From assembly GCF_003334765.1 (NCBI RefSeq), contig NZ_QOWT01000040.1: a stretch of DNA of 31,100 nucleotides, one strand, 5' to 3'. The stretch is from Escherichia coli. GTDB taxonomy: Bacteria > Pseudomonadota > Gammaproteobacteria > Enterobacterales > Enterobacteriaceae. The notes under the pieces are model-generated. The model was given only the letters and a program-made list of their open reading frames with translations, searched no databases and had not been told where the DNA came from. Below are positions 1 to 6,916 of this stretch, piece by piece. Both the position numbers and the translations under genes were made by a program. Numbering within the stretch: the first letter of the stretch is position 1; every line of letters begins with the position of its first letter.

Positions 1-106
1 AAATCGGCTCAAACATGAAGAAATGAAATGACTGAGTCAGCCGAGAAGTATTTCCCCGCTTATTCGCACCTTCCTTAGTCGCGCGCTGAATGGAATTTAC
101 GCCTCT

Positions 107-487
107 TTGGAAACATCTGATTGGGGAATAATGAAGTTATTTGAGGATTTAGCATATAGAAATTATAAGTCAAGCGCATGGTCCGCTATGCTAAGAAATA
201 AATTAAGATTGAGAATGGACGATAAGCTTGATGAAAAGATAATTTCAATAATTAATGAGAAAGAGCTTGGTAAAAAGTTTTATAGAATTGACAGAGATCG
301 TTTGTTATCGTTAATGTTAGATTATAATATTGATATACCAATTAATCTTAATAATATAATTTACCTTTGTAATTATTTTTTCATAAAATCTACGGAGCTT
401 CAGGATATAGCCCCTGCTTTAATAATGAAAAAGCTTACAGATGCTGATGAAAAATTCAATAAAAATACTATTTTAGCATCTAAATAA
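107..487 (+). CDS. Hypothetical protein, low-GC orphan (TTG start at 107; first ATG at 131)
   Basis: 126-aa ORF from the six-frame track; AT-rich; no recognisable motif; convergent with the recombinase/ParB operon; followed by the 505-534 hairpin. Confidence 0.4.
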   Translation: METSDWGIMKLFEDLAYRNYKSSAWSAMLRNKLRLRMDDKLDEKIISIINEKELGKKFYRIDRDRLLSLMLDYNIDIPINLNNIIYLCNYFFIKSTELQDIAPALIMKKLTDADEKFNKNTILASK

Positions 488-504
488 TAACTATCTCCGG
501 CTAT

Positions 505-534
505 TAAGTAGGCCTTGTATTTTAGGCCTACTTA
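505..534. repeat. Perfect 10-bp stem hairpin (taagtaggcc / ggcctactta, 10-nt loop)
   Basis: Inverted repeat read directly from the sequence, 18 bp after the ORF 107-487 stop. No U-tract follows on either strand, so it is not a canonical intrinsic terminator. Confidence 0.5.
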
Positions 535-866
535 AAAAGTTTCATTATGTGAAGTGATGATGATAGCAAATCTGATATCTTTATGGTTGGATGCGAGAAA
601 ATATTTTTATCCCGACACAACAACTGGTAATGATAGAAAATTTAAACCCAAAAATGCTACAGTAGCCTCAGCTCACAAACGGAGTATAAAGTGGCGGTTA
701 CTCTTTAGTGGGAATACTGTAGATAGTTGATAAACTGGGCTGGATTTTCTTTTCTAACCGAAGGGAAGAAAAGCAAGGGGAACCCAAAGAAACAAGCGCA
801 GCGGCTTCGTAGGGTTAGCCCTTGCTTCTTTTATAATTGGCATTATTCATTCAAGAACAATAGGAT

Positions 867-886
867 CTTCGCTTGTACAAGCGAAG
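867..886. repeat. Perfect 20-bp palindrome CTTCGCTTGTACAAGCGAAG
   Basis: The sequence equals its own reverse complement. Lies in the AT-rich non-coding stretch of the island. Confidence 0.7.
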
Positions 887-1005
887 CTATAATAAAAAAT
901 CAATTAATTATTTTAAAAGTATTAAGCAAGAGCCTATTGACATTCGTAAAATAAAAGTTATTTTTAATGTATGCCATAAATAAAAAGTTTTATGTCATAT
1001 GTATC

Positions 1006-1020
1006 CTGCACTATGTGCAG
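1006..1020. repeat. Inverted repeat CTGCAC-TAT-GTGCAG
   Basis: 6-bp arms with a 3-bp spacer, read directly from the sequence. Confidence 0.5.
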
Positions 1021-1036
1021 TTAATGTGCCACTTGT

Positions 1037-1048
1037 CCCATATATGGG
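1037..1048. repeat. Perfect 12-bp palindrome CCCATATATGGG
   Basis: Self-complementary sequence read directly; 17 bp from the 1006-1020 repeat. Confidence 0.55.
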
Positions 1049-1539
1049 AATATTGGAAAGGTTACTTTGTTTTGAAGTAGCCTTTCGTCCTTCAATATTC
1101 ACGATTACTTATTGCTATTACCAAGTCCAGTCGAATCGAAGAACATCTTTTATCTGAAACGACTCCTAATACCAGGTTGAAGCCACAATATCTCTCGCAT
1201 AAGTAGACCAAAGAAAAATTATGATATTAACTATGTGATTTTTTTTAGTGTTAAGTTGAATAATTATATACTGGAGAGTTTTCTGTACACTACCAATTGC
1301 TGGTTCATCTGTTCTGCCGCTGATGTTTCTGACTAATCTCCCGGTGACACAGAACTGTCCCTCTCTACCAGCCTTTATTCGACTCAATGTCCGGCTGCTG
1401 ATACGCAGTTATCCCTTCGTATCAATGACTGACTCTTAAACGCAATGCTTTGGTTGCTGGCGTATCTGACAGCTTCTTCGGCGTGAAGGTCGTTGTGTAA
1501 GTATACTTCTTGGTTTATTTAGGCTATATAAAACCATGA

Positions 1540-2436
1540 CTATGACTGGCTGTTTTCAGTAAGAGTCTTATCATCCAAAGAATTTATTCTAGAAATTCTT
1601 TTTAACTCATTAAGATAATCAACCTCGTTTTCTAAGAACCAATGAAGAACTTTAGAGTTGCCAAGTAATTTATTAATATATGACTGGATTATAACGAATT
1701 TCAACATATCTGAACCATACTCGGTTTGAAGTTTTTTCGTTTCTTCCGAAGTTGTTGCCATTTCTTGTTCCAGACGAAGTATGGTTTTTTTTATGTCCTT
1801 TTTATAGGGAGTGTTTTTCCCTTTATTTACTATCATCGATGACGGTGTTGCATCCAAGATGCTCATTGCAAATTTTTTACTATAATTATCAAAATTAATC
1901 ATTGTACCGACTGCTTCAATTTGACGAATTGGCTTCATTTTCCTCAAAACGTCAAATGTAGCCTTAGGTATAGGTTTATCAGAAAGTTTCGCAATTACAC
2001 TTGGATCTATGCCGTTCATCACATTAGCTTTATCTTTTATGGCATCAACAGATATGCCCAAAGCAGCACTAAGTTTTTCAATTGATACTTTTGCCAGAGA
2101 CTTAATTATCATTCTATGTTCTTCAACTACATTTATATGATTCACTTGTTTGTTAGGAGTGAAAGCATCATCTATGCTCGAAAGTATACATGGAGCTTTT
2201 TCTATATCTAAGTCTTTTAAAGCCTCAACCCTTAAATGGCCATCAAGTATCTTAGTGACATCTTTATCTTTGTCATAGAATACTATTATTGGTTCAATAA
2301 TACCCAAGCTTTCGATAGAGGTAACTATTTGATGATATTTATGGCTTCGCTTTACGTTTTCTAATAATTCCTTAGATGGAATTAACTTATTAGTTTCCAG
2401 GTAAATAAAATTTTTGCCAAAACGTATCTGAATCAT
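1540..2436 (-). CDS. ParB/Srx-like protein B (298 aa), third gene of the operon
   Basis: ParB-like N-terminal layout (IIEPIIV...ILDGHLRVEAL...APCIL) followed by a helix-turn-helix-like segment (SIEKLSAALGISVDAI). ATG overlaps the stop of the upstream gene by 4 nt (ATGA). Confidence 0.6.
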   Translation of the reverse strand: MIQIRFGKNFIYLETNKLIPSKELLENVKRSHKYHQIVTSIESLGIIEPIIVFYDKDKDVTKILDGHLRVEALKDLDIEKAPCILSSIDDAFTPNKQVNHINVVEEHRMIIKSLAKVSIEKLSAALGISVDAIKDKANVMNGIDPSVIAKLSDKPIPKATFDVLRKMKPIRQIEAVGTMINFDNYSKKFAMSILDATPSSMIVNKGKNTPYKKDIKKTILRLEQEMATTSEETKKLQTEYGSDMLKFVIIQSYINKLLGNSKVLHWFLENEVDYLNELKRISRINSLDDKTLTENSQS

Positions 2437-3329
2437 TTTGATACCTCTTTGTTTACTGGGTTTAATATCTGAGATGGTAGTTCTGAAAGATTCTCTTGTT
2501 CAAGTATATTTTGAAAGCTTTTATTCATCATTATGATGTTAAAAATCTCATTTATTATTAGTAGATTGGTTTTTATAAATTTCGAGTTGTTATAAACAGA
2601 TTTATGTTCAGCGATACTATTTTCATAAAGCTCAATCAACTCCTCTGCAGTCATCCTTTTTGATGGTTTGTGATAATAAAATCCGGCTGCTTTTGCACCT
2701 TTATTCCCAACTGTTCTTTGATTTAGAATGTATTTTATCTTTATAATGTCCCGACTTTTTATTAATTTTTTATCATATGCTTCGGTAAGAATATCTTGTG
2801 CTTCCTCAGTTTCACATCTTGCAAATTGCACTGCGAGATACAGAGGCAAATTACCCCGTTCGACTGCTGAGAGAAGTTTATGCTCTCCCTTATCAAGAAG
2901 CATATTAATACTGCTCACCCAGTTCGATGAATATCCAGTAATCTCACTTATTTCGGAGTCTGAAAGTCCTCTGATTTTCATGTCTTTAATCACCTGTAAT
3001 AACTCATTAGAACGTGGTCTTCTCCTTGCAATGTTTTCAACTAAACTCATAACGTAAGCATCTTCTTCTGATACATCTCTTATAATTGCTGGAATAATAG
3101 TTTCACCTAATGCAACAAGAGCCTCTATTCTCCCTTGACCACAAATTAAAGCATATTTGAAATCGTCTTCATCAATAGCTCTTACGCTTATAGGCTTGCT
3201 TAATCCTCTTTTTTTTATGCTTTCCTTTATTTCTTCATGCACTACCTTATTTCTTGTTCGTGGGTTAAGAAATTTTATTTTTGCAATCTCAATTTGAATT
3301 ATTGGGAATTCATTTTTTTCAGGCAGCAT
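2433..3329 (-). CDS. ParB/Srx-like protein A (298 aa), second gene of the operon
   Basis: Close positional match to ParB/Spo0J N-terminal domain plus HTH: PISVRAI...ICGQGRIEAL...IPAIIRDVSEEDAYVMSLVENIARR...LSDSEISEITGYSSNWVSSINMLL. GAGGG Shine-Dalgarno 7 nt upstream; start overlaps the recombinase stop by 11 nt. Confidence 0.65.
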   Translation of the reverse strand: MLPEKNEFPIIQIEIAKIKFLNPRTRNKVVHEEIKESIKKRGLSKPISVRAIDEDDFKYALICGQGRIEALVALGETIIPAIIRDVSEEDAYVMSLVENIARRRPRSNELLQVIKDMKIRGLSDSEISEITGYSSNWVSSINMLLDKGEHKLLSAVERGNLPLYLAVQFARCETEEAQDILTEAYDKKLIKSRDIIKIKYILNQRTVGNKGAKAAGFYYHKPSKRMTAEELIELYENSIAEHKSVYNNSKFIKTNLLIINEIFNIIMMNKSFQNILEQENLSELPSQILNPVNKEVSK

Positions 3330-4875
3330 ATAGTTCCCTCACTTTCATGCGAGTAATAATTTGTAGAAATTTATCAAGATTATCAAATCTATAGAGATCT
3401 AACCGAATGTTGTTTGTTTCCATCATACACATTTTACTATATTCGTTTTCAATCTTTGGTATGATATAAAAATCAAGAGGTGAAATATTTTGTGAATTCA
3501 TTCGTATAACAATTGTTATGTCTGCTTTCTGTGAGTTATCAAACCGGACTTTCCATCTAAGTTTACCTGATTTCATATGTATGCATTTAGTAACAAGGAC
3601 GGAAATTAAAAACTCATCATTGATGTAAAGCATTGGGTAATATTTATACTCGTCTATATGACAGTTACTTTTTAATATTTCGCCCTTAAAATCCTCAATT
3701 ATCTCTGAGTAAAATGATCTTAGTGCTTCATTTATTTGGAGATAGCTGTAATCATGTTCTGGCTTATAACCAATCAAAGTATATGCTCTTAAAAGACCAC
3801 CAAATCGGGTTCTATAAACAGAAGATGAAGGGCCTGTATCATCTTCATCAATGATAAAGCCTGATAGTTTTCCATTAGATTCTAATTTTTCTTTTAGCTT
3901 TTCTAATAGATCTTCATTAGTCAAATGAATGGATCGGAGCTGAATTATTTCTTGAGCTTTATTATATTTTTTCTTTGAAATAATTGGTTTATATGCCTTG
4001 TCACATCTAATCCATTCATGTTTGGGGTTTTTTACAAGCTTACTTTTTAGTTTAGATGAGGTTTTGTTATATATGTTGTTTCCAATATATTTTTCATTTG
4101 TCAAAATTTGATGTATTTTTGCACGAGTCCATGATGTTCCATTTTCTGCAGGTATGCTCTGTTCATTTAATCTCTCAGCAATAATGAATTCTGGGACGTT
4201 ACTATCTATAAAGAGATCATAGATTCTATTTACAATTTTTATTTCATTTTTTGGTCCCGGAATTAATATTACCCTATCTGTTTGAATACTCTTTCTTTTG
4301 CGGAAATTCAATATTTCTTTAGCTATGCCATTTTCGTCTACTAAAAGACGTCTCAGCCCATAACCAGCCATACCGCCTTGATGATAACCAAGCTTTATTA
4401 AATTTACTTGCCCTATAAATACCTTTTCAGATAGATTCCTGCTGTGATATGCAGCACTTGATCTTTTTATATTCAGTATAACAGAGGACTCTAAAGGGAA
4501 ATCTTTAGTGGGTATAGGTTCGGAACAATATATAAGATCTACACCATTTCTTTCAAATAGAAAGGAATAATATGCAGCTTCATCACTATTTTGAAAACGA
4601 CCAAAACGGCTCACATCATAAAATAATACAGCCTGTATATCTATTTTCTTTTGTTCTACATCGCTAAGTAACTGCTGCAAAGAATGCCTGCCTACGATAC
4701 TGACTCCGCTCTTACCTGCATCATCGTAGGTATAAGCGATTTCCATATTGTTCTTTTCAGCATAATCTTTGATATATTCAGACTGATTATGTAAAGAATA
4801 TTGCTGATGGTCGGTAGACATCCTCAAGTACTGTGCGACCCTAACTCTATGATTTTTTTCATTTCCGCTAGCCAT
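3319..4875 (-). CDS. Large serine recombinase-like protein (about 518 aa; track ORF starts at TTG 4881, first ATG at 4875)
   Basis: Resolvase-type catalytic domain motifs in the right order: YLRMSTDHQ (presumed nucleophile Ser), DDAGKSG, RHSLQQLL, VSRFGR. Then a recombinase-domain signature: GGMAGYGL ... WTRAKIHQILTNEKYIGN. GAGG Shine-Dalgarno upstream of the ATG. Confidence 0.7.
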   Translation of the reverse strand: MASGNEKNHRVRVAQYLRMSTDHQQYSLHNQSEYIKDYAEKNNMEIAYTYDDAGKSGVSIVGRHSLQQLLSDVEQKKIDIQAVLFYDVSRFGRFQNSDEAAYYSFLFERNGVDLIYCSEPIPTKDFPLESSVILNIKRSSAAYHSRNLSEKVFIGQVNLIKLGYHQGGMAGYGLRRLLVDENGIAKEILNFRKRKSIQTDRVILIPGPKNEIKIVNRIYDLFIDSNVPEFIIAERLNEQSIPAENGTSWTRAKIHQILTNEKYIGNNIYNKTSSKLKSKLVKNPKHEWIRCDKAYKPIISKKKYNKAQEIIQLRSIHLTNEDLLEKLKEKLESNGKLSGFIIDEDDTGPSSSVYRTRFGGLLRAYTLIGYKPEHDYSYLQINEALRSFYSEIIEDFKGEILKSNCHIDEYKYYPMLYINDEFLISVLVTKCIHMKSGKLRWKVRFDNSQKADITIVIRMNSQNISPLDFYIIPKIENEYSKMCMMETNNIRLDLYRFDNLDKFLQIITRMKVRELYAA

Positions 4876-5157
4876 GCACAAAACCTCATGGATGATTCAA
4901 TACAATGTAGAGGATAAAATTGATCAAATTTTAACCGAATTCAACTGTTTTATCATTGATTAGAGCGAATTTGGTAGTTCTTCGAGGTGTATGATAATCG
5001 AGAAGAGATGTGAATTATTTAGCTGATATGACCGACAGCTTTCGTTATGTGGCCTCAAGGTACCCATTTGTAAATGGCTATGCTTAGTCCACATAGGTTA
5101 ATGGTGTGATCATTAATTCTTCAAATAAATCAAGATAGTTAACCCATCATGGAAGAG

Positions 5158-6387
5158 TTATGCGGCAATAACTTTGTATTTTTGAGACGAAACATAGTCA
5201 CTCCACCATTGCATGAGAACCACACGTTCTGTGAGATACTCTGCACGATTGTAGGCTGCAATTATTTCATCTTTTTTCGAGTGGGCAAGGGCGGCTTCTA
5301 AGACATCAGTTCTAAACTTGCCACACTCCTCAGCCGCCGTTCTAGCGATTGATCGCATACCATGAGCTACAAGCTCACCTCCGAAGCCCATACGGATTAT
5401 AGCCGCATTAGCTGTTTGTTCATGCATGTGATTGAGTGGAGCTTTGATACTGGGAAAAACCCACTCTCTATGCCCGCTGATGGCTTTCATTGAATCCAAG
5501 ACTCGCAAAGATTCTTTGCTCAGTGGAACTTTGTGAGGCTTCTTCATTTTCATAAACTCCGCCGGGATGTTCCACATGCTGGTTTCTATATCAATATCTG
5601 ACCATCTTGTGCGAACAGCTTCACCAGGGCGAACCCATGTGAGAAGTTGCCACTCAATCAGTAGCCTTGTTTCTAAACGGATAGAAGCATTGTTTAGAGC
5701 AACCAGGAAGCGGGGGAGTTCGGAAGGGGGTAATGCTGGCATATTCTGTTTTTTTGGCTTGCTGAACCGTTGCCCCAGGTTGTCAGCCGGATTGAATTCT
5801 ATGAGTTCTTCTGTTGCTGCATAGCGGAAAATTTCATTCAGGCGGGATATGACGCGGCGAAGTGTTTCAAGGACACCTCGTTTTTCTATGGGGTCTAAAT
5901 GCTGTTTAAGCATTTTAGGGCGAATCTCCTTAATGGGGGTATCACCCAACGTTGGAAAGATATTTCTCTCTAGGCTTCGCCAGATGTCGTTAGCATGATC
6001 CTGGGAGATGCCTGACGTTTTGACTTTCTCATCAAGCCACTTCTTGGCTACTGCTTGAAATGTATGTTCCGTTGCATCCTTAAGGGCATTGGCTTTGTGG
6101 GTGTTATGAATTTGTGGGTCTATACCATTTGCAAGCAACGACAAGTACTCATCACGTAAAGCTCGTGCCTTCGCAAGTGTAAGGTGAGGATAGGTTCCTA
6201 AGCTCACCTTAGTTCGCTTTTTGGTCACAGGCACTGCATATCTGAAATACCAATTTTTCTTTCCTCCCTTCGCTAAGGGGGCGATTCGCAGGAGCAAACC
6301 ATCGCCGTCAAAAAGGTTAACCTCTTTCTCGGCAGGTTTGGTGCTTTTGATTTCAGTGTCAGTGAGCTTCTTAGCGATTTTTGCCAT
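5158..6387 (-). CDS. P4-family tyrosine integrase (409 aa from MAKIAKKLTDTEIK; the track ORF extends upstream to 6531)
   Basis: N-terminus typical of P4/CP4-57-type integrases; C-terminal tyrosine recombinase motifs (HGMRSIARTAAE ... AHSKKDEIIAAYNRAEY); sits directly beside the ssrA 3' end. Confidence 0.85.
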   Translation of the reverse strand: MAKIAKKLTDTEIKSTKPAEKEVNLFDGDGLLLRIAPLAKGGKKNWYFRYAVPVTKKRTKVSLGTYPHLTLAKARALRDEYLSLLANGIDPQIHNTHKANALKDATEHTFQAVAKKWLDEKVKTSGISQDHANDIWRSLERNIFPTLGDTPIKEIRPKMLKQHLDPIEKRGVLETLRRVISRLNEIFRYAATEELIEFNPADNLGQRFSKPKKQNMPALPPSELPRFLVALNNASIRLETRLLIEWQLLTWVRPGEAVRTRWSDIDIETSMWNIPAEFMKMKKPHKVPLSKESLRVLDSMKAISGHREWVFPSIKAPLNHMHEQTANAAIIRMGFGGELVAHGMRSIARTAAEECGKFRTDVLEAALAHSKKDEIIAAYNRAEYLTERVVLMQWWSDYVSSQKYKVIAA

Positions 6388-6553
6388 GTTTGGGACCCTC
6401 ATGTTTTGGACCCTTTGTGTTGGGTCCCAAAAAGGGTGCCATAACGAGTAGATTCTAGCAATTCTCGGTAGACTACTATAGACGTAAAAAAGCCCGCAAG
6501 GCTGGTTCCATGCGGGCTTGATAGACTTCACTGAACTTCAATATATCAAAAAT

Positions 6554-6916
6554 TGGTGGAGCTGGCGGGAGTTGAACCCGCGTCCGAAATTCCTACATCC
6601 TCGGTACTACATGCTTAGTCAGTCTTTACATTCGCTTGCCAGCTGCGGACGGACACGCCACTAACAAACTAGCCTGATTAAGTTTTAACGCTTCAACCCC
6701 AGGCAGGGCTTCCACGCGATCTCTTTTGGGTTTGACCTCTCTTGATCCCCGTCCTAAGAGCGGAGGCTAGGGAGAGAGGGCTCTAAGCAGGTTATTAAGC
6801 TGCTAAAGCGTAGTTTTCGTCGTTTGCGACTATTTTTTGCGGCTTTTTACGAGGCCAACCGCCCCTCGGCATGCACCTTGGGTTTCGCAAATCCCGTCGA
6901 ATCCAGAATCAGCCCC
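6554..6916 (-). ncRNA. ssrA: tmRNA (SsrA), 363 nt
   Basis: Reverse complement reads GGGGCTGATTCTGGATTCGACGGGATTTGCGAAACCC ... GGGTTCAACTCCCGCCAGCTCCACCA, i.e. the tRNA-like 5' and 3' ends of tmRNA including the CCA end. Confidence 0.92.

Follow-up and report, generated by a model that had tools for sequence, protein, structure and literature searches.

The ssrA island and its GC-rich patch

The window analysed here is a stretch of 31,100 nucleotides of Escherichia coli chromosomal DNA around the tmRNA gene ssrA, which lies on the minus strand at 6554-6916. To the left of ssrA, positions 1-5157 form an AT-rich island of 33% GC, against 50% in the rest of the window, and this E. coli ssrA (tmRNA) island is the setting of the GC-rich patch described below (Table 1). 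In its order of tmRNA gene, PRK09692-type integrase, and then cargo, the locus resembles other P4-type-integrase islands at ssrA, which carry variable defence cargo: NACHT genes, type I R-M systems, TIGR04141+Hxs, and nuclease/helicase pairs are found in the related islands. It differs from them in the serine recombinase and two ParB-like genes that stand between integrase and cargo. A tRNA/tmRNA scan with ARAGORN finds a single tmRNA, ssrA, and Rfam, run on the whole window at gathering thresholds, finds only the tmRNA, a Phe leader, and RyfD, none of them in the patch.

Table 1. Coordinates of the features discussed, in window positions
Feature	Position	Strand	Basis or remark
P4-type integrase	5158-6531	minus	NCBIfam PRK09692, 444.9 bits
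Large serine recombinase	3319-4881	minus	
ParB-A (ParB-like)	2433-3329	minus	
ParB-B (ParB-like)	1540-2436	minus	ORF list; 298 aa; last gene of the conserved block
AT-rich 3' tail of ParB operon	1499-1539	minus	28.6% GC; common to lineage-2 loci; expanded (AACCAT)n in some relatives
GC-rich segment, highest-scoring in the AT-rich island	1299-1492		194 nt, 50.0% GC vs 33%; maximal-scoring-segment scan of 77-5157
IS3-family (ISKpn34-like) transposase internal pseudogene fragment, core of the patch	1350-1498	plus	DNA and repaired-protein homology; 149 nt
GC-rich piece left of the IS fragment	1284-1349		47% GC
Junction where homology of the block to most other lineages starts and IS homology ends	1489-1498		about 10 nt readable either way
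Left breakpoint, strain 300709 and others	73		island continues into RelA/SpoT, NACHT; window 1-76 is IS5 end
Left breakpoint, commonest class	745-747		e.g. type I R-M system beyond
Left breakpoint, one genome among the matches listed	937		
Left breakpoint, E. coli C	1196		IS1A beyond
Left breakpoint, 94-95% identical lineage (lineage 2)	1489-1492		
Left breakpoint, strain ET881	1499		IS1A beyond

No curated family or defence-system model for the trio of recombinase, ParB-A, and ParB-B (1540-4881) was found with PADLOC and NCBIfam, which return only generic ParB, large-serine-recombinase, and P4-integrase matches for the neighbouring proteins: ParB-A is barely above the TIGR00180 cut-off (61.7 bits), ParB-B is far under it (32.7 bits), and the recombinase has a weak likeness to CcrB-type large serine recombinases (64.5 bits against a cut-off of 900). 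The literature on ISKpn34 and on ssrA islands with serine recombinase and ParB genes yielded no account specific to this locus. At its far left end, the window starts inside an IS5 copy, the right end of which occupies 1-76 (terminal repeat 61-76); K-12-type genomes have 11-16 copies of this stretch each, and in HB101 it is found directly 3' of the IS5 transposase CDS. IS5 interrupts the island cargo here, and in strain 300709 the cargo runs on into RelA/SpoT-like and NACHT genes.

An earlier note on this DNA, made by eye, had pointed to a GC-rich step at 1300-1540, next to the ParB-like operon and immediately after the stop of ParB-B at 1540. The step is real, in a sliding composition profile as in a segment scan, and in the latter it is significant. 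In 200-nt windows, GC content is 48.5% at 1301-1500, against 22-33% in the flanks (1201-1300 and 1501-1700), and 241-nt windows across the island (1-5157) have a mean of 33.1% and a standard deviation of 4.1%, with the maximum of 47.3% in the window starting at 1273. The highest-scoring segment of the scan has a score of 11.59, which is reached by 0.3% of 1000 first-order Markov simulations (mean 6.2, sd 1.4; p ~0.003). As for the limits, bases 1300-1540 are 45.6% GC. The right limit had been set about 40 nt too far: the GC-rich stretch runs from ~1284/1299 to 1492/1498, and 1499-1540, adjoining the ParB-B stop, is 28.6% GC. The open reading frame of ParB-B does end at 1540, as the note had it; the patch, however, does not follow directly on its stop, being separated from it by ~41-48 AT-rich bases, and the gene is not touched.

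The island has several smaller GC-rich segments besides, at 758-825, 4672-4730, and 2828-2889. That at 758-825 (56% GC) ranks second among all the GC-rich segments and includes, on the plus strand at 809-825, a terminator-like hairpin and T-run. A short way to its left is 745-747, where E. coli genomes most often have their cargo breakpoint.

A decayed fragment of an IS3-family transposase gene

The core of the patch is, by its homology, the dead remains of an IS3-family (ISKpn34-like) transposase gene. When positions 1285-1515 were compared with a plasmid collection (7.3 Gb) by sensitive blastn, more than 1800 plasmids matched, all of them at one part of the query. The best plasmid matches, to 1355-1498, have 78% identity over 146-149 nt (E 1e-22), and most of the matches listed are annotated 'IS3-like element ISKpn34 family transposase' or 'IS3 family transposase'. 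The BLASTN search that had been proposed for the patch region thus returns a transposase, and the suggestion that the patch may be a remnant of a deleted gene is borne out. In a pairwise alignment, the fragment (plus strand) runs colinear with the ISKpn34 transposase CDS over nucleotides ~343-493 of the latter, apart from two 1-nt deletions in the window. With these two gaps repaired, the translation LSLSTSLYSTQCPAADTQLSLRINELTLKRQCFGCWRI(W)QLLRREGRCV, in which the bracketed W substitutes for a stop (TGA in the window, TGG in the IS), is identical to ISKpn34 OrfB at 36 of 49 residues (73%; E 5e-20). On a Pfam map of ISKpn34 OrfB, the fragment covers the N-terminal linker and the first part of HTH_21. 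The rve/DDE catalytic domains come further downstream, and no counterpart of them was found in the window. The patch is an ordinary transposase pseudogene fragment and in that sense nothing new: in several RefSeq genomes NCBI's PGAP pipeline independently labels the equivalent of window 1355-1466 'IS3 family transposase; frameshifted; incomplete; missing N-terminus and C-terminus'.

Homology breaks off sharply at 1350 and 1498, at both ends within the IS coding region. In anchored global alignments with shuffles, the colinear IS flanks (66 nt on the left and 30-42 nt on the right) give no alignment to the window, with z between -0.8 and 1.4, where an internal 66-nt control has z = 12, and the IS homology could be extended neither into 1284-1349 nor into 1499-1540. 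No terminal inverted repeats or target-site duplication were found at the fragment, and no inverted repeats flank it. The resemblance to ISKpn34 orfAB is therefore confined to a small part of the element: just 149 of ~1100 coding bases are left, interrupted by the two frameshifting deletions and the in-frame TGA, and what is left has neither orfA nor the frameshift site. Lacking an intact orfA or orfB, the DDE domain, the ends, and a target duplication, it is not a functional IS3-family insertion sequence. Because the fragment is internal and both IS ends are lost, there would have been a deletion on each side.

The source is a relative of ISKpn34 and not ISKpn34 itself, because identity is only 78%, and no closer parent (>78% identity) was found among the plasmid-collection matches. 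Differences between window and IS are strongly directional (20 GC-to-AT and 5 AT-to-GC), and GC content has gone from 59.6% in the IS to 49% in the fragment, a bias that fits the decay of a foreign, GC-rich gene no longer under selection.

One part of the GC-rich stretch, its left third (1284-1349), speaks against an IS scar as the explanation, having neither IS homology nor any other in these searches. Sensitive blastn of 488-1360 against the plasmid collection gave no match, and local alignment of 1270-1352 on both strands against ISKpn34, IS3, the integrase, and lineage-2 junction DNA gave no hit that survives multiple testing (best p 0.013 in 14 tests).

Distribution and junctions among related loci

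ParB-B is present in 624 of 5426 complete E. coli genomes, in every case on the chromosome, and the full patch is found in 544-546 of these 624 (~10% of complete E. coli), with E. coli B/BL21 and E. coli C among them. Within this main lineage (lineage 1), the patch diverges about as much as its flanks: identity for the commonest allele is 98.3% there, against 98.9% for ParB-B and 98.0% across 747-5200. Its conservation (96-100% in ~545 genomes) is by itself compatible with a secondary role and is on its own no argument against one, because the whole locus is equally similar.

Not every locus keeps the patch together with the operon: lineage-2 and IS1-truncated loci are without it. Lineage 2 comprises at least 61 E. 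coli genomes, and a scan of species-representative genomes gave two matches only, in Enterobacter vonholyi and a Citrobacter sp., both with the lineage-2 arrangement. In all three (E. coli, Enterobacter, and Citrobacter), the operon is intact and the patch is missing. Homology to the window ends at 1489-1494 (in two variants, at 1532). Past the break, ~65 nt of different sequence lead to what is left of a second P4-type integrase, a 3' fragment of ~75 codons that is truncated at its 5' end and 72-87% identical to window 5139-5400. Variable cargo follows ~20 nt after the truncated integrase stop: TIGR04141+HxsABCD, an AAA ATPase with a UvrD helicase, or a nuclease with a helicase. The comparison of loci with and without the patch therefore puts a truncated integrase in place of the patch, and the earlier note's proposal that the patch may mark a junction between acquired segments holds, in that the right edge (1489-1498) is also the limit of homology to most other lineages. 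The patch lies outside the conserved int/rec/ParB/ParB block and starts where the block ends.

The patch-less arrangement with the truncated integrase can be followed in six of the related loci (L006, at 5690-5998; L009, at 5641-5952; L011; L012; L013; and L014). Two of them have a hexanucleotide array, (AACCAT)n, directly 3' of the ParB-B stop, with ~5 copies in L013 (~6430-6490) and at least 13 in L014 (~6290-6385); the equivalent stretch of the window, ~1515-1540, has one AACCAT and then GACTAT GACTG.

For the other end of the operon, the inverted repeats at 4882-5157 had been offered as a sign of a separately acquired cassette. These repeats are weak, the best being a 24-nt hairpin of 75% complementarity at 5046-5095, and the shared block does not end with them: it continues beyond 5157 and takes in part of the integrase gene, from the 3' end up to ~5520-5716. 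A cassette edge at 4882-5157 is thus not supported, and the patch itself is no part of the cassette. The integrase gene is a mosaic in comparison with L009, L013, and L014. Its 3' part is ~94-97% identical, like the recombinase and ParB genes, and its 5' part is at 63-85% identity in L009 and L014 from ~5520-5640 onward, with no drop in L013; L006 and L008 share the block only as far as 5716.

Alternative readings and a possible history

The patch is very probably an inert scar: a decayed internal fragment of an IS3-family transposase gene just outside the block of integrase, recombinase, ParB-A, and ParB-B. Four other explanations could be considered. A functional non-coding element of the ParB operon, whether a 3' UTR or terminator, an sRNA, or a putative parS-like ParB site, might be expected where the patch is, 41-48 nt downstream of the operon's last gene, and the patch does accompany the operon in ~545 of 624 E. 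coli genomes. There is also no canonical terminator elsewhere downstream of ParB-B, a scan of 400-2000 having found no terminator-like site on the minus strand that could serve as an intrinsic terminator of the operon. However, the same scan finds no promoter- or terminator-like site within 1284-1540 either, the Rfam 15 covariance models give no match in 400-1700 at E<=1, and the minus strand (the operon sense) of 1280-1545 folds no better than shuffled sequence (z -0.47). Repeat searches over 1-6600 and 1200-1600 yield only chance-level pairs, the inverted repeats in 1200-1600 being short and weak (10-15 nt at 73-90%), and they give no candidate parS-like palindromes, iterated repeats, or direct-repeat family. 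Given also that lineage-2 loci keep intact operons without the patch and that its sequence is recognisable as a decayed transposase gene, a functional element is very unlikely, and the patch would seem to be inert DNA with no sign of function.

That the patch encodes a small protein is an idea with little to recommend it. Three open reading frames, of 38 aa (1323-1439, plus strand), 33 aa (1436-1537, minus strand), and 73 aa (1166-1387, minus strand), do exist in the ORF list, but frames of this size are expected by chance, none of the three is annotated in the RefSeq loci examined, no promoter-like site accompanies them, and they overlap the IS fragment out of its reading frame or on its opposite strand. 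A chance fluctuation in composition, with no separate origin for the GC excess, is just as hard to credit: the smaller GC-rich segments elsewhere in the island could be cited for it, and against it stand the rarity of the segment's score in the simulations and a specific homology, over two thirds of its length, to a GC-rich IS gene. The position of the patch at a boundary between conserved and variable DNA might suggest an island att site or direct-repeat end, for example a duplicated ssrA 3' end. This has next to no probability, since no direct repeat links the patch with the ssrA-proximal end within 1-6600, ARAGORN and Rfam give one tmRNA, the gene itself, and the patch sequence is IS-derived.

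On the preferred reading, the GC step is a relic of GC-richer DNA of foreign origin, left at a rearrangement junction, and not a functional element. Its most likely history would begin with the insertion of an IS3-family element just beyond the 3' end of the block, bringing a transposase gene that would originally have been far more GC-rich (~55-60%) than the 33% GC island. Deletions would then have taken both IS ends, the catalytic domain, and neighbouring DNA, the last probably being the truncated integrase of the more widely distributed arrangement. A scar of 149 bp would have remained, drifted toward AT, and become fixed in the major E. coli lineage. What the fragment is, its decay, its abrupt limits, and its lack in sister lineages are observed directly; we infer both the order of these events (IS insertion, then deletions) and their polarity (lineage 2 ancestral) from distribution only.

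The arrangement of the patch-less loci invites a further idea. There, the full integrase and its 5'-truncated copy (~75 codons) bracket the recombinase, ParB-A, and ParB-B in direct orientation, with variable defence cargo beyond. The trio might conceivably be a separately mobile, circular module, with the patch marking its outer end, that integrates by a Campbell-type event into P4-type integrase genes of ssrA islands, within their 3' part; such insertion could proceed via its own large serine recombinase or by homologous recombination. Recombination of a circle that carries an integrase 3' segment with the integrase gene of an island already in place would produce this pattern. If so, the main E. 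coli lineage would have lost the outer repeat through the IS3 insertion and the deletion that followed, and the block would no longer be mobile there. We consider this improbable. A sharp shared crossover coordinate in the integrase gene was not found, the breaks falling at ~5520-5640 in two loci and being absent from the third, and the truncated integrase copies could simply be co-inherited and fast-evolving. The duplicated integrase 3' ends flanking the trio in sister lineages bear on how modules may move between defence islands, which they do not establish.

Taking the patch to be a dead IS fragment explains the compositional anomaly and takes the patch off the list of candidate regulatory or binding elements. 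The end of the block can be set at ~40-50 bases past the ParB-B stop, which is useful for delimiting the int/rec/ParB/ParB block.

IS remnants are known as deletion scars in genomic islands, and the patch is like them in being a short, internal, non-functional transposase fragment at a point where related islands differ. Events of this sort are common in this island, as IS5 and IS1A truncate it at other points: IS5 at 1-76 of the window and IS1A at 1196 and 1499 in other strains. The sole unusual point about the patch is its fixation in ~10% of complete E. coli genomes. In the loci of E. coli ET881 (L005) and E. coli C (L007), IS1A abuts the block at the equivalents of window 1499 and 1196, respectively, with the chromosomal genes glaH/lhgO/gabD directly beyond it; the whole distal island is gone from both, apparently through an IS1-associated deletion.
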